From Desulfomicrobium sp. (lineage in GTDB: Bacteria; Desulfobacterota; Desulfovibrionia; Desulfovibrionales; Desulfomicrobiaceae): 64,000 bases of DNA. Shown in pieces: positions 1,492-43,168 of this stretch; position 1 is the stretch's first letter; each line of letters begins with the position of its first letter. Location: the NCBI GenBank assembly GCA_040768745.1, contig JAXGMI010000001.1:1792001-1856000 (forward strand), read 5' to 3'. The notes beneath the pieces are model-generated. The model ran no database searches. It had not been told where the DNA came from and worked only from the letters and a program-made list of their open reading frames with translations. Position numbers and translations under genes: made by a program.

Positions 1492-3000
1492 ATGCAGATC
1501 AAAGCAGAAGAAATTAGCCAGATCATCGAAGGCCAGATCAAGAATTACGAGAAAAAGGTTGAGATGAGCGAAACTGGCGTGGTCCTGTCTGTGGGTGATG
1601 GTATCGCCCGCGTCTATGGCTGCGAAAACGCGATGGCCATGGAGCTTCTTGAATTTCCCGGCAACGTCATGGGAATGGTTCTCAACCTGGAAGAAGATTC
1701 CGTTGGTGTGGCCCTCCTTGGCGAGACCGAGCACATTAAGGAAGGCGACCTGGTCAAGCGTACCGGTCGAATCTTCCAGGTGCCGGTCGGCGATGCAGTC
1801 ATGGGCCGAGTCATTGACCCTCTGGGTAACCCCATCGACGGTCTTGGCCCGATCCAGACAGACCTGTATCGGAACGTGGAGATCAAGGCTCCCGGCATCA
1901 TCGCCCGCAAGTCAGTCCACGAACCCATGTACACAGGCCTGAAGGCCATCGACGCCATGACTCCTATTGGCCGTGGCCAGCGCGAACTGATCATCGGTGA
2001 CCGTCAGGTCGGCAAGACCGCAGTTGGCGTTGATGCCATCCTGGCCCAGAAGAACAGCGACATCCACTGCTTCTACGTCGCCATCGGCCAGAAGCGCTCC
2101 ACTGTTGCCCAGGTCGTTGAGGCCCTGCGCCAGAATGGCGCCCTGGCTTACACCACGGTCATTTCGGCCACGGCCTCAGAGCCAGCGCCCTTGCAATTCA
2201 TCGCTGCCTACTGTGGATGTACCATGGCCGAGTTCTATCGTGACAACGGCAAGCACGCCCTGATCGTCTATGACGATCTGTCCAAGCAGGCCGTGGCCTA
2301 CCGGCAGATGTCCCTGCTGCTGCGCCGTCCTCCGGGACGTGAAGCGTTCCCCGGCGACGTTTTCTATCTCCACTCCCGCCTGCTGGAACGTGCGTGCAAG
2401 GTCAACGACAGCCTGGGTGCCGGCTCCCTGACCGCCCTTCCGGTCATTGAAACGCAGGCTGGCGACGTCTCCGCCTACATCCCGACCAACGTCATCTCCA
2501 TCACTGACGGCCAGGTTTACCTTGAGCCCAACCTGTTCATGGCCGGCATCCGCCCTGCCATCAACGTCGGTCTGTCCGTCTCCCGAGTCGGTGGCGCGGC
2601 CCAGATCAAGGCCATGAAAAGAGTTGCCGGCACGCTTCGTCTGGATCTCGCTCAGTATCGTGAACTGGCCGCCTTCGCCCAGTTCGGCTCCGACCTGGAC
2701 AAGGCCACCAAGACAAAGCTGACCCGCGGAGAGCGCCTGGTGGAACTGCTGAAGCAGCCCCAGTACCAGCCCATGCCCGTCGAAGAGCAGGTTGCCGTGC
2801 TGTACGCGGGCACACGTGGCTACCTTGATGACATCGCTGTGACTGAGGCCATTCGCTTCGGCAACGAGTTGGTTGATTTTATGCGCAACCAGAAGTCTGA
2901 CGTCCTGGCCGAAATCGTGCAGACCAAGGACCTTGGCGCTGAGACCGAAAAGAAACTGGCTGCCGCCCTTGAGGAGTTCAAAGCTGGTTTCAAAGCCTAG
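1492..3000 (+). CDS. atpA: ATP synthase alpha subunit
   Basis: GDRQVGKT P-loop, [24 protein letters not shown]. Confidence 0.99.
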
Positions 3001-3020
3001 GATCGTGTAAGGAGTCGTAA

Positions 3021-3893
3021 ATGGCATCACTGAGGGACATTAAAAACAAAATCGTCGGTGTAAAAAAGACCAAGCAGATTACGAAGGCGATGAACATGGT
3101 CGCTTCGGCAAAGCTGCGCGGTGCTCAAGGCCGTATCGAGCGCTTTCGTCCCTATGCTGATAAGTTCAATGACATTCTTATCGATTTGGCTTCCCGCGCT
3201 GACGCGAGCGTTCATCCCCTGCTTGAAAAGCGTGAGGTGATCCAGAATGTAGGCATAGTTCTGGTCACTTCAGACAAGGGGCTGTGCGGCAGCTTCAATG
3301 CCAACCTGTGCAGCGCAGCTGACAGGCTGGCAAAGCAGAAGGAAGCAGAAGGCAAGACGGTCAAGTTTATCTGCATCGGTAAAAAAGGCAGAGATTTCAT
3401 TCGTAAAACGAAATTCGAAATCGTTTCGCAATATGCTGAGAACATGACGAACTTCGATTTTCAGCTGGCCAGCGAAACAGGCAATATCGTCATCGATGGC
3501 TATCTCTCCGCGCAATTTGACGAAGTGCATATCGTTTATGGTAAGTTCGTAAACATCGGCAAGCAGGAAGCGACTACGGCACAAATCCTTCCTGCCGAAA
3601 CGGTTGAATCAGGCGCACAGGCAGGCGCATCCAGCGAATACATCTTTGAGCCTTCCGTAGAAGGGCTGCTTGCCGAATTGCTGCCAAGGTATGTGAAGGT
3701 TCAGATGTACAGAGGTCTCCTCGATACTTCGGCCAGCGAACACGCTGCCCGTATGTCGGCCATGGATAACGCGACCAAGAACTGCGACGAAATGGTCGGA
3801 AGCCTGACCCTGGTGTACAACAAGGCGCGGCAGGCCAGTATCACCACCCAATTAATGGATATTGTAGGCGGTGCCGAGGCACTGAAAGGATAA
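3021..3893 (+). CDS. atpG: ATP synthase gamma subunit
   Basis: KQITKAMNMVA, DKGLCGSFN, ARQASITTQL motifs. Confidence 0.98.
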   Translation: MASLRDIKNKIVGVKKTKQITKAMNMVASAKLRGAQGRIERFRPYADKFNDILIDLASRADASVHPLLEKREVIQNVGIVLVTSDKGLCGSFNANLCSAADRLAKQKEAEGKTVKFICIGKKGRDFIRKTKFEIVSQYAENMTNFDFQLASETGNIVIDGYLSAQFDEVHIVYGKFVNIGKQEATTAQILPAETVESGAQAGASSEYIFEPSVEGLLAELLPRYVKVQMYRGLLDTSASEHAARMSAMDNATKNCDEMVGSLTLVYNKARQASITTQLMDIVGGAEALKG

Positions 3894-22407: not shown

Positions 22408-23916
22408 CTAGCCGGCGATTTCGGGCCGCAGCAAGGGAAAAAGGATGACTTCCCGGATGGACGGCGAGTCCGTGAGCAGCATGACCAGGCGGTCGATGCC
22501 GATGCCCTGTCCTGCCGCCGGGGGCATGCCGTACTCCAGGGCGCGGATGTAGTCCTCATCCATGGCGTGGGCCTCGTCGTCCCCCGCGGCCTTCTCGCGG
22601 ACCTGTTCCTCGAAGCGGGCCTTCTGGTCATAGGGGTCGTTCAGTTCTGAAAAGGCGTTGGCCATTTCCTGCCCGCAAATGAAAAGCTCGAACCTGTCCG
22701 TGATCTCCGGGTTCTGGTCGTTCTTGCGCGAGAGCGGGGAGATGTCCGTGGGATAATGGTAGATGAAGTGGGGCTGGATCAGCTTGGGCTCTACCAGGTT
22801 GTCAAAGAGTTTGGCCTGGAGCTTGCCGAGCTTTTCGTTCTTCTGCACGGTCTCCCCGAGTTTCATGGCCAGGTCTTTGCATTTGCCATAGTCGCGGTAG
22901 ACCTCGGGAGAAACCCCGCCAATCTTTTCCAGGGCTGCATGGAATGGCATGCGCACCCAGCCGTCCTGCAGGTCGATGACCTCGCCCTGGTATTCCACCA
23001 GATGCGTGCCGTTCACGGCCTGGGCCAAGTCGCGGAAGAGTTCCTGGGTCAGGTCCATGAGGTCGACGAAGGTGGCGTAGGCCCAGTAGAATTCGATCAT
23101 GGTGAATTCCGGGTTGTGCCGCGTGTCGATGCCTTCGTTGCGGAAATTGCGGTTGATCTCGTAGACCCTGTCGAATCCGCCCACCAGCAGGCGCTTAAGA
23201 TAGAGTTCCGGGGCGATGCGCAGAAAAAGGTCCATGTCCAGGGCATTGTGGTGGGTCCTGAAGGGCTTGGCCGTGGCCCCGCCGGCAATGGGCTGCATCA
23301 TCGGTGTTTCCACTTCCAGGAAGTGGCGTTCGTTCAGGAACTTGCGGATAAATTGCACAATGGCAGTGCGTTTGCGGAAGATTTCCCGGGCCCGGTCATT
23401 GACCAGGAGGTCCACATAGCGCTGGCGGTAGCGGGTCTCCACGTCCTTGAGGCCATGGTATTTTTCCGGCAGGGGCCGCATGGACTTGGACAGCAGGCGG
23501 ACCTCGCTGGACTTGACGGTCAGTTCCCCTGTCTTGGTGCGGAACAGGGTGCCGGCCACGCCGACGATGTCGCCGATCTCGAATTTTTTGAAAATGGAAT
23601 AGTTGTCAGCGCCCAGGTCATCGCGCTGGGCATACACCTGCACGCGGCCCGTGGCGTCCTGGATGTGGAAAAAGGTCGCCTTGCCAAAGGAGCGGTGGGC
23701 CATGATCCGGCCGCACACGGCCAGGGCCAGGGCTTCCTGGGCCAGGGCTTCCTCGGATTTGTCCCCGTGTGCCGTGAGCACGTCTCCGATCTCGGCAGAT
23801 CGCCGGAAGTCGTTGGGATATAGGGAAATGCCAGCGTCGAGCAGGAACTGGGCCTTTTCCTTGCGGTGGCGCAGGAGCTGCTTTTCCGTTGGGGCATTGA
23901 TCTGGTCTTGTGTCAA
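22408..23916 (-). CDS. lysS: Lysine--tRNA ligase (class II); start codon uncertain
   Basis: [30 protein letters not shown]. Confidence 0.97.
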
Positions 23917-28153: not shown

Positions 28154-30598
28154 TCAGGCGGCAACCGTTGGCTGGTACAGGAATTTCTGGAACCCGACAA
28201 AGATCTTGTTGATCTCCTCCACCTGGCCCAGATCGGCCATGGCATCCTTGAGCGAGTTGCCATAGCGCAGCCGCAAGAGAGGCGTCAGTTTCGTCTGGTC
28301 CAGTTCTTCCACTCCGACGTTCACGTAGTGTCCGAGCACAAAGTCCAGGAAAGCCTGCTGCTTGCTGTTGAAGCGCTGCTGGATGCTGATTCTGGCCCTG
28401 GCCGCTCTTTCTTCCCGCGTCAACGGCACATCGGCGTAGGCCACATGGGCCAGCACGTCGAAGATGTCGCACTTTTCAGCGTCGATGATCTTCTGCATTT
28501 CAGCGAGCTGTTCCTTGCCAAAGCCTTTTTCCGCCAGACCGTCCAGGAGTCTGCGCCGGGTGTCCGGAACGCTCCAGATGCTGCGCAGTTCGTCCTCGTC
28601 CTGGAAGAATTCCGGCAGTCTCCCGAAGAGCGCCTCCATGAACTGCGCGGCGGACATGGGCGTTCCGTCCGGGTGCCAGAAGCTCGTGGCCACCATGTGC
28701 TGGATGGTGCGCTCCTTTCCGTCGGCCAGCTTGATCCTGGCCCTTTTCACGCATGTGCACGGGCGCTGTCCGCATTTGGGGCATGGGTCCTTGGGGCATA
28801 CGCAAGGCTGCTGCCCACACTCCGAACAGGGCGGCTTGGGGCAGACGCATGGTTGCTCGCCGCAGGTCAGACACGGGGCCGGGCGCTCCTTGACGCAGAC
28901 GCAGGGGTATTTGCCACAGATCGTGCAGGGTTCGGGCTCAACGGGTTCTCCGTCCCATTCGGGATCGTTGAAGTGGTGATGGGCCTCCACGAAGTCGTAA
29001 ATCGTGAAGTAGTCCTTGCCGTCGTACAGGCGCGTGCCGCGTCCGATGATCTGCTTGAACTCGATCATGGAATTGATGGGCCGCATGAGCACGATGTTGC
29101 GGATGTTGCGGGCATCCACGCCGGTGGACAATTTCTGCGAGGTGGTCAGGACCGTGGGGATGGTCTTTTCGTTGTCCTGGAAGGCCCGCAGGTGCTGCTC
29201 GCCGAGCACCCCGTCATCGGCCGTGACGCGCTGGCAATAGTTCGGGTCCCCGTAGGACTTGAGCTGGTTGACCAGATCGCGCACGGCCAGGGCGTGGTCC
29301 TGGTTCGCGCAAAAAACCAGGGTCTTCTCGCGCTGGTCCATGAGGGACATGAAAATTTCGACCCGTTTCTTCTCCCGCGCCCTGATTTCGATGATGCGGT
29401 TGAAATCCGCCTCCCCGTAGATCTTTCCGTCCTCGATCTCCCCTTCGATCAGCGTGTCGTCGGACGTGTACACGTATTCGTCCAGCGTGGTGGCGATCTG
29501 CTTGACGCGGAACGGTGTGAGGAATCCGTCGTTGATGCCGTCCTTGAGCGAGTAGATGAAGACCGGGTCGCCGAAATAGGCGTAGGTGTCGGCGTTGATG
29601 TCCCGCTTGGGCGTGGCAGTCAGGCCGAGTTGCACGGCCGGGGCGAAGTATTCCAGGATGCCGCGCCATCTGCTTTCGTCCCTGGCGCCGCCGCGATGGC
29701 ATTCGTCGATGACGATGAAATCGAAGAAGTCGGGAGGGTAGTCCCCGAAATAGGGGCTCGGTACTCCGCCTGTCGGCGGTCCGCACATGAAGGTCTGGAA
29801 GATGGTGAAGAAGATATTGCCGTTCTTGGGCACCTTGCCTTTCTTCCTGATCTCGTCCGGTGCGATGCGTACCAGAGCGTCCTCGGCAAATGCGGAAAAT
29901 GCATTGTAGGCCTGATCCGCCAGAATGTTGCGGTCGGCCAGGAACAGGATGCGCGGCCTGCGGCTCGGCACCCCGTCCTGTCGCCAATCCTGCAGGTTCC
30001 AGCGGCTGTGGAAAAGCTTCCAGGCGATCTGGAAGGCGATGAAGGTCTTGCCCGTGCCTGTGGCCAGCGTCAGCAGGATGCGGTCCCGGCCGTCGGCCAT
30101 GGCGGACAGGACCCGCTCAACGGCGATGTCCTGATAGTACCGGCCCTGAAAGTATCCGCCGCGGTCCTCGAAGGGCACGGCCTTGAATCGGTCCCGCCAG
30201 AGATTCTGCACGGCGAAGGTCCGCCCCCAGAGTTCTTCCGGCGTGGGATAGGCGGATATTTCGGCCTCGCTGCCCGTTTCCATGTCCACGGCATAGATGC
30301 CCTGTCCGTTGGTGGAGTACGTGAAGCGCACGGCCAGCTTGTCGGCGTAGTCCTTGGCTTGGGCCAGCCCTTCGGTCAGCGCCTTGTCCCAGGCCTTGGC
30401 CTCCACCACGGCCAGCTTGGTGTTGCGGTATTCAAGGACGTAATCGGCCGTGAGAGCCTTGGCCCGCTTTCCCGCACCCTGGATGCGCCCCATGGTGATG
30501 GGATACTCGGGCCGGATGCGACTGCCTTCGAGCACGCCCCAGCCGGCGGCCTTGAGGGCCGGGTCTATGTGCAGGAGGCGGGTTTCGGCTTCGTTCAT
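28154..30598 (-). CDS. hsdR: Type I restriction endonuclease subunit R (EcoEI/EcoAI-like) with Cys-rich repeat insert
   Basis: ADY..VVEAK nuclease motif, LATGTGKT, IDECHRG, QIIGRGTR. Confidence 0.93.
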   Translation of the reverse strand: MNEAETRLLHIDPALKAAGWGVLEGSRIRPEYPITMGRIQGAGKRAKALTADYVLEYRNTKLAVVEAKAWDKALTEGLAQAKDYADKLAVRFTYSTNGQGIYAVDMETGSEAEISAYPTPEELWGRTFAVQNLWRDRFKAVPFEDRGGYFQGRYYQDIAVERVLSAMADGRDRILLTLATGTGKTFIAFQIAWKLFHSRWNLQDWRQDGVPSRRPRILFLADRNILADQAYNAFSAFAEDALVRIAPDEIRKKGKVPKNGNIFFTIFQTFMCGPPTGGVPSPYFGDYPPDFFDFIVIDECHRGGARDESRWRGILEYFAPAVQLGLTATPKRDINADTYAYFGDPVFIYSLKDGINDGFLTPFRVKQIATTLDEYVYTSDDTLIEGEIEDGKIYGEADFNRIIEIRAREKKRVEIFMSLMDQREKTLVFCANQDHALAVRDLVNQLKSYGDPNYCQRVTADDGVLGEQHLRAFQDNEKTIPTVLTTSQKLSTGVDARNIRNIVLMRPINSMIEFKQIIGRGTRLYDGKDYFTIYDFVEAHHHFNDPEWDGEPVEPEPCTICGKYPCVCVKERPAPCLTCGEQPCVCPKPPCSECGQQPCVCPKDPCPKCGQRPCTCVKRARIKLADGKERTIQHMVATSFWHPDGTPMSAAQFMEALFGRLPEFFQDEDELRSIWSVPDTRRRLLDGLAEKGFGKEQLAEMQKIIDAEKCDIFDVLAHVAYADVPLTREERAARARISIQQRFNSKQQAFLDFVLGHYVNVGVEELDQTKLTPLLRLRYGNSLKDAMADLGQVEEINKIFVGFQKFLYQPTVAA

Positions 30599-30599
30599 T

Positions 30600-31580
30600 T
30601 CAGGCCCCCGGCGACAGCATGTTCATGATGAGTTGGATGATCGCCTCTTTCTGGGCAGGGTCGGATTCCGCCACCAGCAGAGCCAGAGCTGCCAACCCCA
30701 TATCGTTGAACACCGGGGCGCCGTGGTTGTCGAACAGCCGTTGGTTACGATTGAGGAAGTCCACAAACAGGAAGGCCCCGCTTCGCTTGTTGCCGTCGGC
30801 AAAAGGGTGATTCTTGATGACGAAATAGAGCAGATGCGCGGCCTTGGCTTCGATGCTGGGGTAGGCGGGTTCACCGAACACGGTTTGCTCGAGATTACCC
30901 AGCAGGGCGGCCAACCCGTCGCCCCGCTCCTGTGCAAAGAGCGCGGTAGCCTCGCTTCGTCCGACCAGATCCGTCTTCAGAGCGGCCAGCATCTGCCGGG
31001 CCTCCTCCACGGTTGGCAATGCTCCTCCCGACTGCTGGCGCGGTTCGGTCAGCAAGCCTTGGTCGTAGCGTTGGAGGAGGAGAAAAGTCTGGGTGTAGCG
31101 GGCGATGATGTCCACCAGACCGCGTCCGGCATCAACCGCAAACATGGGACTTTGGGCGGCTTTTTTAGCCAGTTGCAGCGTTGCTTCCAGCGCCTTGGCG
31201 TTTGTTTCAAAACGCTTACGGTTCAGGGCGAAATCACGGGTTAGATACCCTCGTAAAACACGGGTCGCCCATTGCCGAAAACGGGTGGCGCGGGCGGAAT
31301 TAACCCGATAACCTACGGAAATCACTGCATCCAAGTTGTAGTGGTCAATGCGTCGAGTGACCTGCCTGGCTCCTTCCCGTTGAACTGTTTCCTTTTTGGA
31401 AACGGTTGCCCCCCGCTCCAATTCGCCGCTGGTGTAAATATTTTTGAGATGTTTCGAGATGGCTGCTTTTTGCACTGCAAACAGCAGGGCCATATGTTCC
31501 TGCGAAATCCAGAGGGTGTCCTGCTCCAACAGCACCTCTATTGAACTCGTCTCATCTTGGTAAATGGCTATCTCGCTCAT
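30600..31580 (-). CDS. RhuM-family / Fic-Doc domain fusion protein
   Basis: HYNLDAVISVGYRVNS..ATRFRQWA (RhuM) plus HPFADGNKR (Fic/Doc). Confidence 0.9.
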   Translation of the reverse strand: MSEIAIYQDETSSIEVLLEQDTLWISQEHMALLFAVQKAAISKHLKNIYTSGELERGATVSKKETVQREGARQVTRRIDHYNLDAVISVGYRVNSARATRFRQWATRVLRGYLTRDFALNRKRFETNAKALEATLQLAKKAAQSPMFAVDAGRGLVDIIARYTQTFLLLQRYDQGLLTEPRQQSGGALPTVEEARQMLAALKTDLVGRSEATALFAQERGDGLAALLGNLEQTVFGEPAYPSIEAKAAHLLYFVIKNHPFADGNKRSGAFLFVDFLNRNQRLFDNHGAPVFNDMGLAALALLVAESDPAQKEAIIQLIMNMLSPGA

Positions 31581-31592
31581 AACATCCGGCCG

Positions 31593-32798
31593 TTACAGGT
31601 TTCCGCTAAAAGCTTGGTGCAGCAGGGATTGCTTCAATGCCTCCAGCGCGGTGAGTTTGCGCTCGTAGATGTGGGCGAGGCGTTGGGTTTCTTCCATCAA
31701 AGCGTCTAGTTTTTCCACGGCTTGCTGCTGTTTTCTCAACGCAACCTTTGGAACGACGAAACTGCGAAGAAGTTTCAATGAAACGGTCTTTTGTGCTGTA
31801 CCTGTCGCGCCGTCGTTTGCCTGTTTGAACAACTGTGGAGACAGGAGGAGATAGTAAAGCCACGCGCTACTTGTCTCTGGCTTCGGGCGAATAAGCCCAA
31901 TATGCCGCTGGAAGCAAAACTCGCTATCGTCGCGCACCATGACGGGGATTCCGAATGAACCGGTGACAGTGTAAAGCAGGTCACCCTGCCGAGGCTTCTT
32001 GTATGGTTTCAGAGCGTCAAAGTAAGCACGGGGAACCATGAAGGTGTCTCTGAAATCAATCTCGCGAGTTTCTTTTACGATGTTACCGATGGTGATGAAC
32101 GGAACGCCTGTCGGAGATTTAGGCGGCGGTAAATGGTCGCCGTCCGTGATGTCTGTTGCCAAGTCCGCAAGCGTAACTGGTTCTCCTGTTTGCCATTGGT
32201 CCGCAAAGACGGATTGGAGATGGCTTTCGAAGAGGGCGCGGGCGTTTTGGAGATTCTTTTCGGCGTTGGCTTTGGCGGTGGCGAGGCCCGCAAATGCTTC
32301 GTCGAGAATGGCGACGATCCGCTGCTGTTCGGGGAGCGGAGGGACGGGAATATCGACACTTTGAAGTTTTTGAATCGTCAGAGTATCGACCGTTGCGCCA
32401 TTGCCTCGGTCGAGTTGGTCAAAGAAGGAAGGCGACTTCAGCCATAAATTGACGAACTCGCTGCTTACCTCGGCGGCTCGCTTCATCCAGAGAACGCTCG
32501 CGTCCTTGAAGTAAAACTTGTCGCTGCTTCGGACAACATGTGAGTTCCCGATTGTTCCAATCGCGGTGATGACAATGTCGCCCGCTTGAGGAACGCCGTA
32601 TTTTTTCGATAGCTCGGCAAAGTGCTTCTCTGAGATGAAAAGCTCGTTGTTTACGAAACCGTCGGCTGCCAGTCGCGTCACTTCGCGCCCACGGTAGAAG
32701 GGAACGCCCTCAGTCTTCCATTGGGATTTCAGAACGCGTTTGCTTGAGCCAATCTGGTAGAGATCGCTCAGCTTTTTTTTGGGCCACCCCTTCTTCAT
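31593..32798 (-). CDS. hsdS: Type I restriction-modification specificity subunit
   Basis: Two TRDs separated by PPLPEQQRIVAILD conserved helix; LKQSLLHQAFSGNL end. Confidence 0.93.
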   Translation of the reverse strand: MKKGWPKKKLSDLYQIGSSKRVLKSQWKTEGVPFYRGREVTRLAADGFVNNELFISEKHFAELSKKYGVPQAGDIVITAIGTIGNSHVVRSSDKFYFKDASVLWMKRAAEVSSEFVNLWLKSPSFFDQLDRGNGATVDTLTIQKLQSVDIPVPPLPEQQRIVAILDEAFAGLATAKANAEKNLQNARALFESHLQSVFADQWQTGEPVTLADLATDITDGDHLPPPKSPTGVPFITIGNIVKETREIDFRDTFMVPRAYFDALKPYKKPRQGDLLYTVTGSFGIPVMVRDDSEFCFQRHIGLIRPKPETSSAWLYYLLLSPQLFKQANDGATGTAQKTVSLKLLRSFVVPKVALRKQQQAVEKLDALMEETQRLAHIYERKLTALEALKQSLLHQAFSGNL

Positions 32799-32839
32799 AG
32801 CAGAGCCTTGATGTTGCTCAATACTACCGTGTTTTCGGC
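32795..32839 (-). pseudogene. Stranded second copy of the hsdM 3' end
   Basis: Translates AENTVVLSNIKALL* versus AESAKVLATIRELL* at the end of intact hsdM; both end in CTGCTATGAA overlapping the next ATG. Confidence 0.7.
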
Positions 32840-32849
32840 AGGATGACAG

Positions 32850-32876
32850 ATGGAAATCATGGAAAGTATGTGATTG
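32850..32876. repeat. Three degenerate 9-nt ATGGAAA-type tandem units downstream of four-helix-bundle gene
   Basis: ATGGAAATC ATGGAAAGT ATGTGATTG. Confidence 0.55.
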
Positions 32877-32892
32877 AAGTGCGTCATAGGCA

Positions 32893-33585
32893 TCATTTCT
32901 TGTGTTGCTGGTTGCGGTGCGCGAGCCGCGCCTGGAACATCCGTTCGCGGAGGCCGCCTTGTTCCAGGAAATCTGTTTCCAACCGACGCAGTTGCTGGTC
33001 GAGCAGGTAGTTGGTCTGGTGAATCAGGCAGATGGCAATGTTGGCGATGACCTCGGGCGGTCGGGTTTCCACATACTCACGGTAAAGTTCAAAGGTATGT
33101 GGGGTCTTGCGGCCGAGGCGGCGGACAAATTGCGCTTCCTTGGAGTCCTTGTCCCAAATGACGTGGTCGCGCACGCGAAGATAGTCGCGGTAATCGGCGA
33201 GCAGCTCTTCGAGACTGGCCCGCCCGACATTGGTCAGCTTGATCTCGGATTCCTTGGAGGTGAGCCCGGCTTTGCTGCCTTCAAGGATGTTCTGCTTGCC
33301 GGAGCGCGCGGCCTGGATCATCTGGTCCACGGTGCGGTCGCCCTTGCCGAGGTACTTGTGGGCGAAGCGGTGCGTGATGTCGTAGATGACTTCGGCTTTC
33401 TGAAAAGAGAGCAGGGTTTGGTAATCGCCGCGCGGGGGGATGATGGGATGGGCGTCGGGCGAAGGTGGCTGAGAATGGGAGATATGGGAATTATGGGAGC
33501 CAGGGGAAATATGATTATCGGCATTTCCATGTTTTTCATTCTGCCCATCATTCCCATGCTTCCCATATTTCTCATCAGTATTCAT
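32893..33585 (-). CDS. Four-helix-bundle protein (23S rRNA IVS/S23-like family) with four-helix-bundle suffix domain
   Basis: YQTLLSFQKAEVIYD, RTVDQMIQAARSGKQNILEGS, RASLEELLADYRDYL, FLEQGGLRERM. Confidence 0.85.
   Translation of the reverse strand: MNTDEKYGKHGNDGQNEKHGNADNHISPGSHNSHISHSQPPSPDAHPIIPPRGDYQTLLSFQKAEVIYDITHRFAHKYLGKGDRTVDQMIQAARSGKQNILEGSKAGLTSKESEIKLTNVGRASLEELLADYRDYLRVRDHVIWDKDSKEAQFVRRLGRKTPHTFELYREYVETRPPEVIANIAICLIHQTNYLLDQQLRRLETDFLEQGGLRERMFQARLAHRNQQHKK
33475..33575. repeat. Inverted array of 9-nt tandem repeats (4 forward + 6 reverse units)
   Basis: + strand: ATGGGAGAT ATGGGAATT ATGGGAGCC AGGGGAAAT, spacer, then CATTTCCAT GTTTTTCAT TCTGCCCAT CATTCCCAT GCTTCCCAT ATTTCTCAT. 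Confidence 0.85.
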
Positions 33586-35036
33586 AGCAGTTCCCGGATA
33601 GTGGCCAGCACCTTTGCGCTCTCAGCATCCAGCGCCGCGATTTCGTCCATGATTTCCTGTGGGCTGCGGTGTTTCACCTCTTCGCCGTTGTTCGGGTTCT
33701 TGGCCGAAAGGTCAAAGCTCGTCCGATCTATGCCGGTAACATCCACACTCCAGCTTTTGGGCGAGTCGGCCTTGGTTTTTTGCAGCTCCACGAACTCGGC
33801 CAGATCGGCGTCGTTCAAGGCCGTGGTCTTGCCCAAACTGCGGCCGGGGTCGAGTTGATAGAACCAGACCTTGCGAGTGGGCCGGCCTTTTTCGAAAAAG
33901 AGGACCACGGTCTTCACGCCAGCACCCTGGAAGGTGCCGCCTGGACAATCGAGGACCGTATGCAGGTCGCAGCTTTCCAGCAGCATTTTGCGCAACGACA
34001 CTGAAGCATTGTCCGAGTTGGACAGGAACGTGTTCTTGATGACCACGGCCGCCCGGCCCCCGGCTCTCAGCATCTTGATGAAGTGCTGCAGGAAGAGGAA
34101 GGCCGTCTCGCCGGAACGGATGGGGAAGTTCTGCTGGACCTCTTTGCGCTCCTTGCCGCCGAAGGGCGGGTTGGCCAGGATCACGTCGAAGCGGTCCTTG
34201 TCCTGGATGTCGGCCAGGTTTTCGCTCAGGGTGTTGGTGTGGACGATGTTCGGGGCCTCGATGCCATGCAGGATCATGTTCATGATGGCGATGACATAGG
34301 CCAGGGACTTCTTTTCCTTTCCGTAGAAGGTGCGTTCCTGGAGGGTCTTCAGGTCGTCCGTGGTCAGGTCCGGCTTGGCCGTGAGATAGGTGAAGGATTC
34401 GCACAGGAAGCCGGCCGAACCGCAGGCGCCGTCATAGATGCGCTCGCCGATCCTGGGCTGCGTAACCTGGATCATGGCCCGGATGAGCGGGCGCGGCGTG
34501 TAATATTCCCCGCCGTTGCGGCCCGCGTTGCCCATGCGCTTGATCTTCTCTTCGTACAGGGCCGAGAGTTCGTGCTTTTCGCTCTGGGAACCGAAACGCA
34601 GTTCGTCCACGTGGTCGATGATGTCGCGCAGGGTGTAGCCGCTGCGGATCTTGTTTTTGATCTCGCCGAAAATCTCGCCGATCTTGTATTCGATGGTGTC
34701 CGGCCCGGTGGCCCGCTGCTTGAATCCGTGCAGGTAGGGGAAGAGCTTGCGGTCCACGAAGTCGACCAGATCATCCCCGGTCATGGCCTTGTTGTGGTCC
34801 AACTTGCCGCCGCCGTTCTTGGGCGCGGCCCACGCCTCCCAGCGGTAGGGCGCATCAAGGATGAACGAATACTCCCGCCCTTCCAGGGCCGCTTCCGTGG
34901 CCTTGTCCTGCTCCAGCGCATCGAGATATTTGAGAAAGAGCAGCCACGAGGTCTGCTCCGTGTAGTCGAGTTCCGTCGTGCAGCCGCTCTCTTTCCAAAG
35001 CGCGTCGTCGATATTCCTGAATGCTTGTTCGAACAT
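33582..35036 (-). CDS. hsdM: Type I restriction-modification N6-adenine methyltransferase
   Basis: GEYYTPRPLI, YDGACGSAGFL (motif I), ANPPF (motif IV). Confidence 0.95.
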   Translation of the reverse strand: MFEQAFRNIDDALWKESGCTTELDYTEQTSWLLFLKYLDALEQDKATEAALEGREYSFILDAPYRWEAWAAPKNGGGKLDHNKAMTGDDLVDFVDRKLFPYLHGFKQRATGPDTIEYKIGEIFGEIKNKIRSGYTLRDIIDHVDELRFGSQSEKHELSALYEEKIKRMGNAGRNGGEYYTPRPLIRAMIQVTQPRIGERIYDGACGSAGFLCESFTYLTAKPDLTTDDLKTLQERTFYGKEKKSLAYVIAIMNMILHGIEAPNIVHTNTLSENLADIQDKDRFDVILANPPFGGKERKEVQQNFPIRSGETAFLFLQHFIKMLRAGGRAAVVIKNTFLSNSDNASVSLRKMLLESCDLHTVLDCPGGTFQGAGVKTVVLFFEKGRPTRKVWFYQLDPGRSLGKTTALNDADLAEFVELQKTKADSPKSWSVDVTGIDRTSFDLSAKNPNNGEEVKHRSPQEIMDEIAALDAESAKVLATIRELL

Positions 35037-35259
35037 GGCGTTTCTAAGGGTTGGCCAGCGCATAGCGGCCAGTGGGCAATGGTTTGGAATCAGAAAACCA
35101 GGTGTTTTTCTAGGTTACAACAGCCGGAGCAGACAAGGCCAATTTTGCAGCCGTGGCCCGGCGGCGGGTTCGGGGTGTTAAAAGAGCAAAAAATTTCTTT
35201 TTGCAAAAAAAATATGAGTATGTTATTTAATAACCATGAAAAACTGTTAAAACGCCGCG

Positions 35260-36213
35260 TCAGGCACAGGCCTGCATCGGCTGAACATTGGGTCGAAGTA
35301 TGTGCCCAAGGAATTTGAGATACAAAAAACACAGAACCCGGATGAACTTCCGGAAATTGAACGCGGCACAGGCCATGAACAGATTCACGGCGTCGCCGAC
35401 CTGGCCTTTGAGGTAATTGCGCAGCATCCTGTGGTCGTTCTTGAGGTGGCCGATGATCGGTTCGATGGCCGCACGCCGACGGAACCGTTCCCTGGCTTGC
35501 CGTTTGTCAGAAGCTGTTTTCGTCCGCTTGCCTGACTCGGGAATTTCGATGCTGGTCACGCCGACCTTGCGCTTGCCGCGGTATCCTCGGTCGCAGATCG
35601 CCATGGTCGGCCGTTGCCCCACGATGCTTTCGACTTGAGACAGAACCGCAGGCAGCGTGTGCCCGTCGAAAGGATTGTCCTGGAAGGACAAGGCGCCAAC
35701 GATGATGCCGCTGGTCTTGGTCACGGTCACGGAGGCTTTGGCGCCGAACTCGTACTTCTTGTGAGCCTTGCCTTTGCTGATGCAGGACACTCCGGGTTCG
35801 TGGAGGCTGTAGATCTTGCCGGTGTCGGATCGCTGCTCTGGCTGCATTCCGGTCTTCTTCCACAGTTCGACCGAGCAGCGGGGCAACTGGGCATCCAGGT
35901 CAGTTTCCAAGGCGATCCGCTGAAACCGTTGCCGCAAAATCTCGGCGGAAGGAACGCGTCCAAGGCCAAGGCTGGTCGCGAAGAAATCGTCGCCGTAGTA
36001 CTCACGAACATGGTCGAAATCCGTTTTGCCTTGGCACATGAGGCCGACCAATGTGCGGAAAATTTCGCGCTCCTTGATCTGCGGAGCTTTTCCAGGCCCA
36101 AGACGATCGACCAGTGTATCCAGACCGCAAACCCTGGCCATCTCGCTAATCAGGGCCAGGCCGACATGACCAATGTTGTTTCCTTCGTTTCGCTTGATAT
36201 CGGTGATGAGCAT
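35260..36213 (-). pseudogene. Chimeric transposase: IS1380-family N-terminus fused in frame to IS5-family C-terminus
   Basis: GLMCQGKTDFDHV..RVPSAEILRQRF (IS1380-like) joined near 35840 to KIYSLHEP..KGKAHKKYEFG..DRGYRG..RRRAAIEPIIGHLK (IS5-like). Confidence 0.75.
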
Positions 36214-36333
36214 TGCAAACTCCTGTCGCACCCAATGGGTGCAAAAACTCATTCAGGAAAAGCAAACCCAATATACCGGTATCATTGATTTATTTCAAGT
36301 ACAAAATGTTTCAAAACTCTATATTCAATGCAA

Positions 36334-36351
36334 CTTTTTCACGGATTTAGG
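36334..36351 (-). mobile_element. Probable left end of IS1380-family element
   Basis: CCTAAATCCGTGAAAAAG on minus strand about 140 nt upstream of the transposase start; partner end not found. Confidence 0.55.
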
Positions 36352-36551
36352 TTAAAAGTCATCAACCTTGAAGAGGATGTTCTCTGCTTTCACTGTGATT
36401 CAATCTGTATGTCTGTCTTCTGGAAAAATTATTTCAAAATAGTTGCAAAAATACATATTATATTTTCAGAATCTGATCAAATTCATCTATTACAATTAAT
36501 AACGTAATTTTTTTTGTGATAACAATTTAAAATTACAATCATTATTCAATA

Positions 36552-37442
36552 ATGAATAAAATCATTTTCTTATACAAATTTATTTTTTTAAATTTTTTCA
36601 TTATTTCATTATCTTTAATTTTTATGAATATAAATTTATTTGCTTCAGAATTAAAATATAATATGAAAAATTCAATACAAATTGTAGATGAATCAACTGG
36701 AAAAAAAACATCGTATGAATTACTGGATACAGTATACGATCAAAAATTTAAAAATTTTGTTGTTTCAATTTCAAACTATATATCTGACAATATTGAAAAA
36801 TTAATAAATTTTTATAATTGTTCAAATGATAATCCGAAAATTGAACTTTGTTTTGTCTATAGGCCATTGATTCTTCAAAAAGCAGGAGGAGAATGCAGTA
36901 GTCTTATCACTGATGATTTGAAATCAAACATTATCTCTCATTTGAAGAGCCCTTGGGTGACCATTACAAGAAATCGTTCACCAATGCTTACACTTCATGC
37001 GGTGTTCATGTGGAACGAGCGGCAAGTTCTGATTGATCAGGCTTTGCTGGCGGGGTCTGATATTGCGCAAATCAAGTCGAACGCATCGATTGAGGCCGCT
37101 GTGTTTGAAAAATATGTTGAGGAGTATGCAAATTCTATCCTCCTTGCTCCGACTCCGGAAGCTCAAGCTGAAGCCAATGTCCGTATCGTTGAACGAATTC
37201 CTGCGGATATCTTGTGGCTTTTCAGGCAAGGGTGGCAAAGCACTCACGCACCATTCTCTATGGAATCGAGGCATACTCTTCATCTTGTTCTTGAACGTGC
37301 TGTGAATCAATATATCGATCTGTCAAAAGCACTTTTTGACAGATGTTTTATTTCAAAAAATACAAATGAACAATTTCATAATATTTTCTCTTTACATTCA
37401 ATTATTGATATCAACAAGCATAAAATTAAAAAGTTTCATTAA
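36552..37442 (+). CDS. Hypothetical protein, AT-rich, N-terminal hydrophobic segment
   Basis: 296-codon open frame in very AT-rich DNA; no family recognised. Confidence 0.6.
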   Translation: MNKIIFLYKFIFLNFFIISLSLIFMNINLFASELKYNMKNSIQIVDESTGKKTSYELLDTVYDQKFKNFVVSISNYISDNIEKLINFYNCSNDNPKIELCFVYRPLILQKAGGECSSLITDDLKSNIISHLKSPWVTITRNRSPMLTLHAVFMWNERQVLIDQALLAGSDIAQIKSNASIEAAVFEKYVEEYANSILLAPTPEAQAEANVRIVERIPADILWLFRQGWQSTHAPFSMESRHTLHLVLERAVNQYIDLSKALFDRCFISKNTNEQFHNIFSLHSIIDINKHKIKKFH

Positions 37443-41292: not shown

Positions 41293-43168
41293 CCCAAGTT
41301 TGACAGCAATATCGAGCTTATTTGTTTAAAATTAGGATATTATCGCTTCGGCGCTAGTTGGAGTTTACACTACATTTCCTTTTTCTCCACGGGTCGGGAT
41401 CGGCGGGACTCCCAGAGCACGCAGGATCTTTTTCTGCGCGTCCGTGGGGCGACTAGGAGTCATCAGCGTCTCCTCTCCGACCATGATCTCCCCCATCTTG
41501 ATCTGACGCAGAAGGCGGATGGCTGTCGGCACAGACACTGCCATTCCTTTGAGCTTGTTGCGCATCCAGCGCTCTAACTGCAATGCGATCACGCAGACAA
41601 ACACATGTGCCCTGATTCGCTCCTCAGTCCAGTGATACACAGGGCGTAGTTCCAAGGTGCTTTTGAGCGCTCTCCATCCCCGTTCAATTTCAGCAAGCTC
41701 TTTGTAATGTTTGATAATGTCTGCGCATGGTGCATCCATGTCGGTTGTTTCGAGAAGCAAGACGCCATCGATCTTTTCCTCCCAAGCCCTGCGTTTCCTG
41801 TGGGCCTTGACGATGACCTGATCCTGAGTGAGCGCAACTTGGAACAATGAGAGCAAGCCCTTGTCACGCAGGTAATCCCTGATGCGGTCGTATTGACCCT
41901 GTGGGCTTGGTTTGCGTCCCTTGCCTGACCTTGGGGCGAGTATTTCCCGGATCTTGGCATCGGCCTTGGCAAGGCGCTCCTGGCGGTTCGCCTTGGTTTC
42001 GGCTGCGATCTTCGGAGAATAGGCCATAACGAACCGGACCCCGCTGCGAACTTCCTCGACAATCTCCTCGTCCTGCCCATTAAACGAGATCTTAAGACGC
42101 AACGCCTCGATCACGCTCCGCGCCTCCTCTCCACGACGCAATGGATGCGCCACGATGAAGCCGAATTCCTCGGCCAGCAACGTCTCGAGATTTTGGTCCG
42201 AGAGCATTCCCCTGTCCCCGACAAACACCACGCTGCGTAGCTTGAAGCGAGTCTTCAGATCCTTCACCACCTCAACCACAGTGGTCTTATCCACGGTGTT
42301 CCCCGGAAAGACATGGTGGCAAAGCGGTATGCCGTCCTTGCCCATGACCACGCCGATGGTGATTTGGCGCCGATCAAACCGGCCATCGCGACTGTATCCG
42401 AAGCGCCGAATGTCATCCTCCACCAACGATCGATCCCCGTCGAACCATGTGGAAGTGATGTCATAGAAGAGCAGGTCGCCTTCCCAATGCGCCTTGGGCA
42501 TGAAGCGCTTGGCTATCAAGGGCTCCAAAGCTTCCTTCGCATCCAGCAATCTATCCATGGCGCGCAGGAGATGGTGATAGGCCGGGCGGTGTTGCTCAAA
42601 TCCAGAAAGCCAGACGCCATCGAGCCAATCCAGTAGCGCCAGTTTGGAGCACGGATCGCAGAGTCGATTGACGATCAGCAACTTGATCAGTTCAGCATAA
42701 TCCATCCCGGCCCCGGTCTTTACTCCTGCACGGGCCAGGGCTTTGGAGAGTCCCAGGATTTCCCAGAGATGTTTGACCGCGTGAACATGTCCGAAATCAC
42801 GTGCAAACGTGAGGAGCGGCGGTCCAGTCTGAACCGGGTCTCGACCGAGAGCTTTCTGGAAGCCAGCGATGAGTCTCTCGACCTGGTCTTCGCCCAAACT
42901 CTCGATAGTGCCGAGATGAGCCAGGATGCGTGTGCGCGGAGATCCGCCTTTCTCGGGATCACGGAAAGATTCCGCGATCTGAAGATGGCGGTAGACTTTG
43001 TCGCCTCGTTTCTGCTTGGCTATTCGTACAAACATAAACTACGAGTAGCATTATTATTCATGAATAGCAATGTTTATGTCTATTTTGTACGTACTACAAA
43101 TTGGGCATTAAAAAACAATATAAGTCATAACTTCGAGGTGTTAGCCTCAGGCCGCTGTCAAACTTGGG
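41293..43168 (-). mobile_element. Complete IS1634-family insertion sequence (1876 bp)
   Basis: Perfect 15-bp IRs CCCAAGTTTGACAGC / GCTGTCAAACTTGGG; 6-bp TSD GTGCCG at 41287-41292 and 43169-43174. Confidence 0.93.
41365..43035 (-). CDS. IS1634-family DDE transposase
   Basis: FYDITSTWF, FGYSRDGR, VGDRGM, IERGWRALK..LRPVYHW..RIRAHV. Confidence 0.92.
   Translation of the reverse strand: MFVRIAKQKRGDKVYRHLQIAESFRDPEKGGSPRTRILAHLGTIESLGEDQVERLIAGFQKALGRDPVQTGPPLLTFARDFGHVHAVKHLWEILGLSKALARAGVKTGAGMDYAELIKLLIVNRLCDPCSKLALLDWLDGVWLSGFEQHRPAYHHLLRAMDRLLDAKEALEPLIAKRFMPKAHWEGDLLFYDITSTWFDGDRSLVEDDIRRFGYSRDGRFDRRQITIGVVMGKDGIPLCHHVFPGNTVDKTTVVEVVKDLKTRFKLRSVVFVGDRGMLSDQNLETLLAEEFGFIVAHPLRRGEEARSVIEALRLKISFNGQDEEIVEEVRSGVRFVMAYSPKIAAETKANRQERLAKADAKIREILAPRSGKGRKPSPQGQYDRIRDYLRDKGLLSLFQVALTQDQVIVKAHRKRRAWEEKIDGVLLLETTDMDAPCADIIKHYKELAEIERGWRALKSTLELRPVYHWTEERIRAHVFVCVIALQLERWMRNKLKGMAVSVPTAIRLLRQIKMGEIMVGEETLMTPSRPTDAQKKILRALGVPPIPTRGEKGNVV

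Follow-up and report, generated by a model that had tools for sequence, protein, structure and literature searches.

The DNA analysed here is a 64,000-nt stretch (the window) of a Desulfomicrobium sp. genome (contig JAXGMI010000001.1, positions 1,792,001 to 1,856,000), in which a gene for a four-helix-bundle protein, accompanied by arrays of 9-nt repeats, lies between hsdM and hsdS of a type I restriction-modification operon. Read along the minus strand, the genes are hsdM, the 230-aa open reading frame (ORF), hsdS, a RhuM/Fic gene and an EcoAI-type hsdR. The operon belongs to the EcoAI/FtnUII group, as indicated by the HsdR match to NF046051 (803.8 against a cut-off of 550) together with the HsdM and HsdS Pfam domains. 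The hsdM stop is overlapped by the ATG of the four-helix gene. Six forward 9-mers, then four complementary ones after an 11-nt spacer, and three further complementary ones downstream were found at the positions given by the preliminary description of this locus. We call the gene with its arrays the cassette; related or compared genomes carry G numbers (G000 being the present 3.09-Mb genome) and loci carry L numbers. Profile searches of the cassette unit detected no transposase, reverse transcriptase (RT) or recombinase, and no RVT_1 match was found in the whole of G000, which is 99.99% complete. The earlier statement that no transposase or RT is adjacent therefore holds for the unit, but an IS5-type transposase fragment lies 1.7 kb away, upstream of hsdM and outside the unit. 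Rfam gave no match in 30000-37000.

The junction between hsdM and hsdS is variably occupied. A match to hsdM was found in 4 of the 60 relatives searched (G005, G007, G019 and G033). Same-genus G005, whose hsdM is 95% identical, carries an empty allele with hsdM joined straight to hsdS, whereas G007 and G019 hold the orthologous cassette, each ahead of a different hsdS; the G033 locus is broken and more distant. Among the three filled same-genus alleles the N-terminal recognition region of hsdS differs, with 37-39% identity over the first ~200 residues. In G007 (locus L083) the fifth codon of hsdS is an in-frame stop. We then classed by eye a metagenome sample picked by hsdM alone (the best 80 of 585 loci). 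Junctions were direct in 58 (4 of them with <300 nt downstream), held a four-helix gene in 6 (two apparently identical, one truncated) and other passengers in 13, and were unclear in 3. Seven of the other-passenger loci were compared with Pfam, and 5 could be named, as a nucleotidyltransferase pair, DUF1016/YhcG, KilA-N and DUF3800. Forward arrays after the hsdM stop were present in 4/6 four-helix loci, 0/13 loci with other passengers and 0/58 direct loci. The comparison with cassette-free hsdM-hsdS loci that had been called for is thus available within one genus and in the metagenomes. Together with the arrayed homologues in unrelated loci described below, it supports the original proposal of a repeat-flanked cassette inserting at operon junctions.

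The filled alleles are scattered on an hsdM tree of 87 rows, from which 8 metagenome loci were omitted as duplicate, incomplete or unclear and whose bootstrap had not fully settled. Accounting for the 19 filled alleles takes 16 changes, of which no fewer than 6 are forced by starred branches; these alleles cluster no more than in shuffles (130/500). Gain and loss have therefore been repeated; the tree does not give the direction of each event. A mosaic test at the 3' end of hsdM was set aside as weak and not specific to the four-helix passenger.

Table 1. Features of the hsdM-hsdS junction (window coordinates)
Feature	Position	Strand	Remarks
hsdM (host gene)	33582..35036	-	N6_Mtase and HsdM_N
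hsdM 3' tail			last ~45 nt of hsdM; holds the start signal of the next gene
Left 10-mer	33581..33590	+	end of hsdM tail plus overlap
Four-helix-bundle gene with suffix domain, 230 aa	32893..33585	-	TIGR04258, TIGR02436
5' forward array, six 9-nt units	33522..33575	-	family consensus ATGGGAAGA, within coding leader
5' complementary array, four units (one degenerate)	33475..33510	-	pairs locally with forward array
33-codon relay frame	32795..32896	-	start overlaps four-helix stop, stop overlaps hsdS start
3' complementary array, three units	32850..32876	-	past four-helix stop
Second hsdM-tail copy, diverged	32795..32839	-	23/39 identical to resident tail; matrix score 35.7 bits
Right 10-mer	32794-32803		most of it within second tail copy
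hsdS (host gene)	31593..32798	-	Methylase_S

Arrays accompany the protein far beyond this operon. From 537 confirmed relatives in genome contigs we surveyed the best 80, limiting counts to loci with enough flank. Forward chains of at least two units lay upstream in 62/79 loci and complementary chains downstream in 54/77, both being present in 43/76; control windows gave 2 and 5 of 1104, with a motif derived from the same surveyed loci. A motif-free scan picked period 9 in 73/81 loci. Chains of the 5' array hold one reading frame (60/63 and 40/43). Matches to hsdM beyond an N-terminal scrap occurred at 20/80 loci, and four more had scraps of hsdR, hsdS or hsdM. Leaving aside those 20, the other 60 loci had no hsdM match in the fetched flank. 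At these 60 loci the 109 neighbour frames scanned include unrelated families (PNPase, a chorismate-binding enzyme, secretin, ABC transporters), many frames being without a family match and none an RT. Arrays thus flank homologues in unrelated loci, the point that the preliminary description had proposed to check.

On a tree of 118 proteins (FastTree), 4 changes suffice for the ATGGGA word (72 rows), against 36.4 in shuffles. More distant protein clades carry other 9-nt words and mostly keep period 9. Words were defined by eye, 19 rows had none, and 6 loci were omitted as duplicates or fragments; as read from these sequences, the repeat word follows the protein clade. Arrays also occur without a gene. 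In one planctomycete genus a gene-free inverted-array pattern was found in 30/41 genomes (control 0), and 8 of 15 hand-picked array sites were short inverted pairs too small for a gene. By hand count, the median was 9 hits per genome in the 13 genomes with a close protein match, their own arrays included, versus 1 in the other 28. In the present genome, only one other chain of at least three units exists. It lies on contig C3 (~23810-23885), flanked by a gene start and a terminator-like hairpin, and is an inverted array of 9-mers of the same word without a gene.

Several loci of the wider family have features of their own. A BREX-3-like locus of the present genome (G000:C2:822-13147, L260-L264), with BrxF and PglZ above cut-off, a BrxC-like protein and an SNF2 helicase, has four genes of the classical TIGR02436 type, one of them broken, each placed at a gene junction. 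Each has short tandem units of its own word, and three of these are clear heptamer arrays. A paralogous clade (L230, L231, L234, L236-L238) occupies one fixed position in same-genus genomes with a 5' array only and looks domesticated. In a distant clade (L242, L244, L252) the four-helix gene contains an in-frame insert carrying its own inverted repeat units. The 3' spacers of L197, L198, L199, L029, L057 and L120 hold a second, A/T-rich repeat family (CAATTG core) nested behind the 9-mers.

Stand-alone copies have ragged ends. A scrap of hsdM tail was detected just ahead of the start codon in 15/59 loci without hsdM, against a background of 5 hits in 441,814 nt (0.003 per 260 nt); a downstream tail was seen in 1/59. 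When twelve stand-alone planctomycete copies were aligned to hsd-locus copies, the matches began at -84...-168 and stopped at +542...+780, counted from the start of the core, without an end common to all; one genome (G149) has both a stand-alone and an hsd-locus copy. Such ends fit insertion with variable ends or later erosion; these two are not separable here because no clean empty site was recovered.

The 230-aa protein scored 82.7 bits against TIGR04258 (cut-off 40) and 25.4 against TIGR02436 (cut-off 24); its match to PF05635 (23S_rRNA_IVP; 21.4 bits, E 3e-4) fell under the gathering cut-off of 33.8. Residues 1-45 form a repeat-encoded leader, after which comes a conserved core. A model predicted from a 51-row alignment was all-helical, with a predicted local distance difference test score (pLDDT) of 87.9; a single-sequence model (pLDDT 44.7) was unusable. 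The best structural match was Xcc0516 (2GSC; Z 14.6, root-mean-square deviation 1.6, 110 residues aligned), followed by 2RLD (Z 12.7) and by Avd, the accessory protein of diversity-generating retroelements (8UB7, Z 11.9; 4DWL, Z 11.3). The Avd scores lie below the tool's guide value of ~13 for helical bundles and within the range of unrelated helical bundles. Foldseek also ranked 2GSC and 2RLD top, yet with E > 0.1. Sequence searches of the PDB gave no match, and no match to the HUH (Y1) nuclease family was found. A prediction of a 4-copy homo-oligomer (score 0.25, mark 0.42) weighs neither for nor against an assembly. For the protein family of 23S rRNA intervening sequences (IVSs), structures are solved and the function is unknown (PMC4990558). 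The ratio of nonsynonymous to synonymous substitution rates (dN/dS) is 0.07-0.09 for the core in 3/3 same-genus pairs; the four-helix core is under purifying selection. For the leader dN/dS is ~0.7, and its dS is lower than that of the core in all three pairs. Twelve Arg/Lys positions are invariant. From these residues and the concordance of word and clade, we predict that the protein recognises its own repeat word.

Strong purifying selection is also what would be seen if the gene were a passively carried accessory of defence operons with a cellular or anti-phage role, its arrays being slippage by-products and its stand-alone copies eroded hsd islands. The same junction accepts other passengers without arrays (0/13), 5 of the 15 tail-scrap loci have hsd remnants nearby, four further family genes sit in the BREX-3-like locus, and the paralogous clade keeps a stable position in 7 same-genus genomes, all of which favours this explanation. 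We nevertheless regard it as rather unlikely. The 60/80 homologue loci without an hsdM match in the fetched flank have nameable neighbours that are unrelated, the arrays are inverted and polar across many phyla, their words vary by clade while period 9 is mostly kept, and gene-free inverted arrays are dispersed in the planctomycete genus.

The folding of the arrays bears on a different explanation. The 5' forward array is expected to form 30.5 base pairs with the 5' complementary array and 0.01 with the 3' complementary array. Of the two pairings that the preliminary description had envisaged, local or across the whole ORF, only the local one thus stood; a long-range stem over the ORF, tried as a candidate, appeared in no centroid fold. 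The tight 5' hairpin was more stable than shuffles (z -2.8 as sense RNA, -4.5 as antisense RNA, -3.2 and -2.8 as DNA), and stabler as antisense than as sense RNA, whereas wider windows (z -1.4) and the whole unit (z -0.93) folded no better than shuffles. The suggested folding comparison therefore came out positive for the hairpin and negative for the unit.

The preliminary description had further suggested looping out or IVS-like excision at the RNA level. In its explicit form, the cassette would be an intervening sequence of the mRNA, its outer arrays pairing across the ORF and being cut out as RNase III cuts 23S rRNA IVSs. The protein fold is that of IVS ORFs, and 13/81 loci carry outer forward and reverse arrays only. 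In the IVS of Coxiella, tandem heptamers precede the ORF, and RNase III cuts the terminal stem (PMC4990558). Pairing at the present locus, however, is local. On the mRNA strand, A-C mismatches exceed G-U both in outer 5'-3' arms (56 vs 18, 44 loci) and in 5' hairpins (38 vs 17, 37 loci); the 3' hairpins show 13 vs 8 (18 loci), which is not significant. This would be the reverse of selection for wobble pairs, a point weakened by codon bias and kinship, which confound the counts. Within a locus, the 5' forward arm resembles the 3' reverse arm no more closely than it does those of other loci (p 0.20). Co-variation within loci was seen between the 5' and the 3' forward arrays and between the two arms of the 3' hairpin (0 of 2000 permutations), which suggests local duplication of modules. 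A conserved relay frame behind the gene (see below) would be needless after excision and joining. Contigs of 4 runs (one on record as true RNA, depth ~3, uncovered parts being uninformative) contained no cassette-skipping joint. Two joints listed in them lie inside genes, are short-sided and likely come from other organisms; one RNA-library contig, which may be DNA, spans the 3' array and hsdS unbroken. Excision from mRNA is accordingly improbable.

Behind the cassette lies a second copy of the hsdM tail. The two 10-mers that had been described as bracketing the unit lie where reported, and the 10-mer occurs 4 times in the genome, both strands counted. Reading them as a boundary of the element's own is not supported, since the right one is the end of a ~45-bp diverged tail copy, recognised with a matrix built from 52 empty alleles. 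We therefore rejected the 10-mer as a short target-site duplication. Tail copies of ~15 to 60 bp lie behind 4/6 metagenome four-helix inserts and also behind 3/13 other passengers, several of the latter loci being cut by contig ends; because they also follow unrelated passengers, they are not an element-specific target duplication. The hsdM stop overlaps the hsdS start in 58/58 direct alleles. Selection would be expected to preserve the tail with any passenger, given that the hsdS start signal lies in it, and the second copy restores that signal here.

The tail copy also forms the end of a relay frame that bridges the 3' spacer and is predicted to pass ribosomes to hsdS. The relay is kept in G007, and G019 has a two-step relay. 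An unbroken overlap chain, by relay or in-frame fusion, was found in 13/18 filled loci, compared with 5.0 expected from shuffled spacers and 9.3 from a frame-shift null (p 0.03). Possession of a tail copy was the criterion for selecting these loci, which include near-duplicates and two in which the downstream gene is not hsdS. The earlier proposal that translational coupling is kept gains support from this predicted chain.

Tail copies could alternatively reflect site-specific integration of a circle composed of the cassette and one tail, with the hsdM tail as attachment site, giving integron-like arrays delimited by tails. Locus L028 has a near-perfect direct repeat of ~75 bp and three tail copies, three are also present in L001, and deletion between two tail copies would give back the exact empty junction. 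Against integration of this kind, tail copies differ in length (15 to about 60 bp) and mostly resemble the resident tail no more than other tails (closer to the own hsdM than to every other allele in only 1/21 pairs, that of L028), a downstream tail is found in only 1/59 stand-alone copies, and the unit is without a recombinase. We judge this unlikely. In L028 itself (2270-3700), the three tail copies bound a DUF1016-like remnant, recognised by eye, and the four-helix cassette, and hsdS opens with forward repeat units.

Ragged ends with scraps of upstream transcript, together with the possible similarity to the Avd fold, would also be expected if the Avd-like protein partnered an RT in trans and complementary DNA of the operon transcript were inserted. 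This is the least probable account that we considered: the nearly complete genome has no RVT_1 match, no RT was found among the 109 neighbour frames, and the Avd Z-scores lie under the guide value.

The reading that we prefer, with a probability of roughly 55%, is that of a repeat-packaged passenger cassette, variably present at hsdM-hsdS junctions, which would move with ragged ends, by homology-assisted illegitimate recombination, and be kept where reading frames are coupled. Incoming hsdM-cassette DNA would recombine by homology within hsdM at the left end, and the right end would join at a variable short match inside the hsdM tail of the recipient. This would leave 15-60 bp of the recipient tail downstream of the cassette, the hsdS start signal included. 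Because a period of 9 nt equals three codons, arrays with open frames would be translatable; ribosomes would therefore be relayed to hsdS and the insertion tolerated. In a third and least certain step, the protein may bind its own word in a single-stranded hairpin and promote copying or retention of the arrays and its own gene. Host enzymes would do the chemistry, following the logic of repetitive extragenic palindromes (REPs) and their RAYT transposases.

A number of observations weigh against this passenger cassette or its mobility. No transposition event or intermediate was seen, and clean empty sites for stand-alone L019 and L032 were not found in 41 genomes each, the flanks being too diverged or variable. 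At their 3' ends, filled hsdM alleles show a small excess of identity (0.018, p 0.015) that is equal with other passengers, and the frame-shift null makes the excess of coupling modest. Concordance of word and clade is expected from co-inheritance alone, with words set by eye. Arrays are many in some draft genomes that have no match with this protein query (G130 with 45, G146 with 18, G114 and G138). Other hsd remnants at 5 of the 15 tail-scrap loci imply that erosion of a larger island also yields ragged ends, and tail scraps of 10-25 bp may be retained simply as a ribosome-binding site. The ~75-bp direct repeat of L028 (38/39 in the tail) better fits circle integration or tandem duplication.

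More tentatively, the four-helix genes and their cognate arrays could form a mobile class without a catalytic transposase. A word-recognising protein would use host recombination to spread its own gene as well as gene-free hairpins, and would enter operons unnoticed by keeping coupling, by means of three-codon repeats and a captured start signal. The hsdM-hsdS junction would then be the hub of a radiation across phyla.

Other genes near the cassette have peculiarities of their own. The RhuM/Fic fusion gene (window 30600-31580), between hsdS and hsdR, is a second passenger of the operon, and HsdR (28154-30598) has a Cys/Pro-rich repeated insert ahead of its C-terminal domain. Just upstream of hsdM, the transposase ORF (35260-36252) is chimeric or truncated, with an IS1380-like front and an IS5-like back, both below cut-off. 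An IS1634 transposase (41365-43035) also lies outside the cassette unit.

A family without known function becomes testable here through its clade-specific word, the filled and empty alleles of one genus and the predicted relay frame. The locus shows how a passenger can insert into a defence operon with tight coupling and leave it switched on. The same entry logic would extend to the nucleotidyltransferase pairs, DUF1016, KilA-N and DUF3800 passengers of this junction.

Our literature search, with supplements and subscription papers outside its scope, found no account of the gene-plus-array unit. 'Tandem inverse repeats and associated proteins' (TIR/TARP), a preprint that this search did not find, reportedly ties short tandem inverted arrays to several protein families including four-helix bundles; if so, the class is already described. 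Dispersed short tandem repeats are known in cyanobacteria as short tandemly repeated repetitive sequences (STRRs). The TAACTGA heptamers of Beggiatoaceae (PMC4679880, PMC4853749) are, in the passages searched, similarly intergenic short-period tandem arrays by starts and stops with unknown function; unlike the present arrays, they have period 7 and are mostly direct, and these passages hold no link to a four-helix-bundle gene, with no occurrence of 'helix bundle', '23S' or 'S23'. Compared with an insertion sequence or miniature inverted-repeat element, the unit has no transposase of its own and no fixed termini, and its tail copy varies in length and origin. Avd pentamers bind nucleic acid and may have a similar four-helix fold, but a diversity-generating retroelement has an RT, absent from G000, and a pair of template and variable repeats, of which none was seen. 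Homology-facilitated illegitimate recombination, a homologous anchor plus a join at 3-10 bp of microhomology (PMC6382021), would yield the observed mosaic junction; it is a host process rather than an element and leaves the arrays unexplained.

Two systems come closest. ORF-bearing 23S rRNA IVSs of Coxiella and Leptospira (S23p/IVP) share the four-helix fold (2GSC, 2RLD), tandem repeats right before the ORF (heptamers, with RNase III excision; PMC4990558), inverted flanks and patchy presence. The present gene differs in lying between hsdM and hsdS rather than in an rRNA helix, in being coupled into a protein operon, in belonging to a suffix-domain subfamily under purifying selection, and in having partly translated arrays and a local hairpin where a terminal stem would enclose the ORF. 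REP/REPIN systems with a RAYT comprise a single-copy gene, inverted flanking copies of a word, and dispersed gene-free inverted copies. The cassette resembles them in the inverted words flanking the gene, the tie between word and protein clade and the dispersed gene-free copies, and departs from them in having no HUH nuclease match, arms made of tandem 9-mer arrays, and ragged ends. Taken together, the unit shares its protein and repeat-before-ORF layout with rRNA IVSs and its overall layout with REP/RAYT, and differs from both in features that define them.

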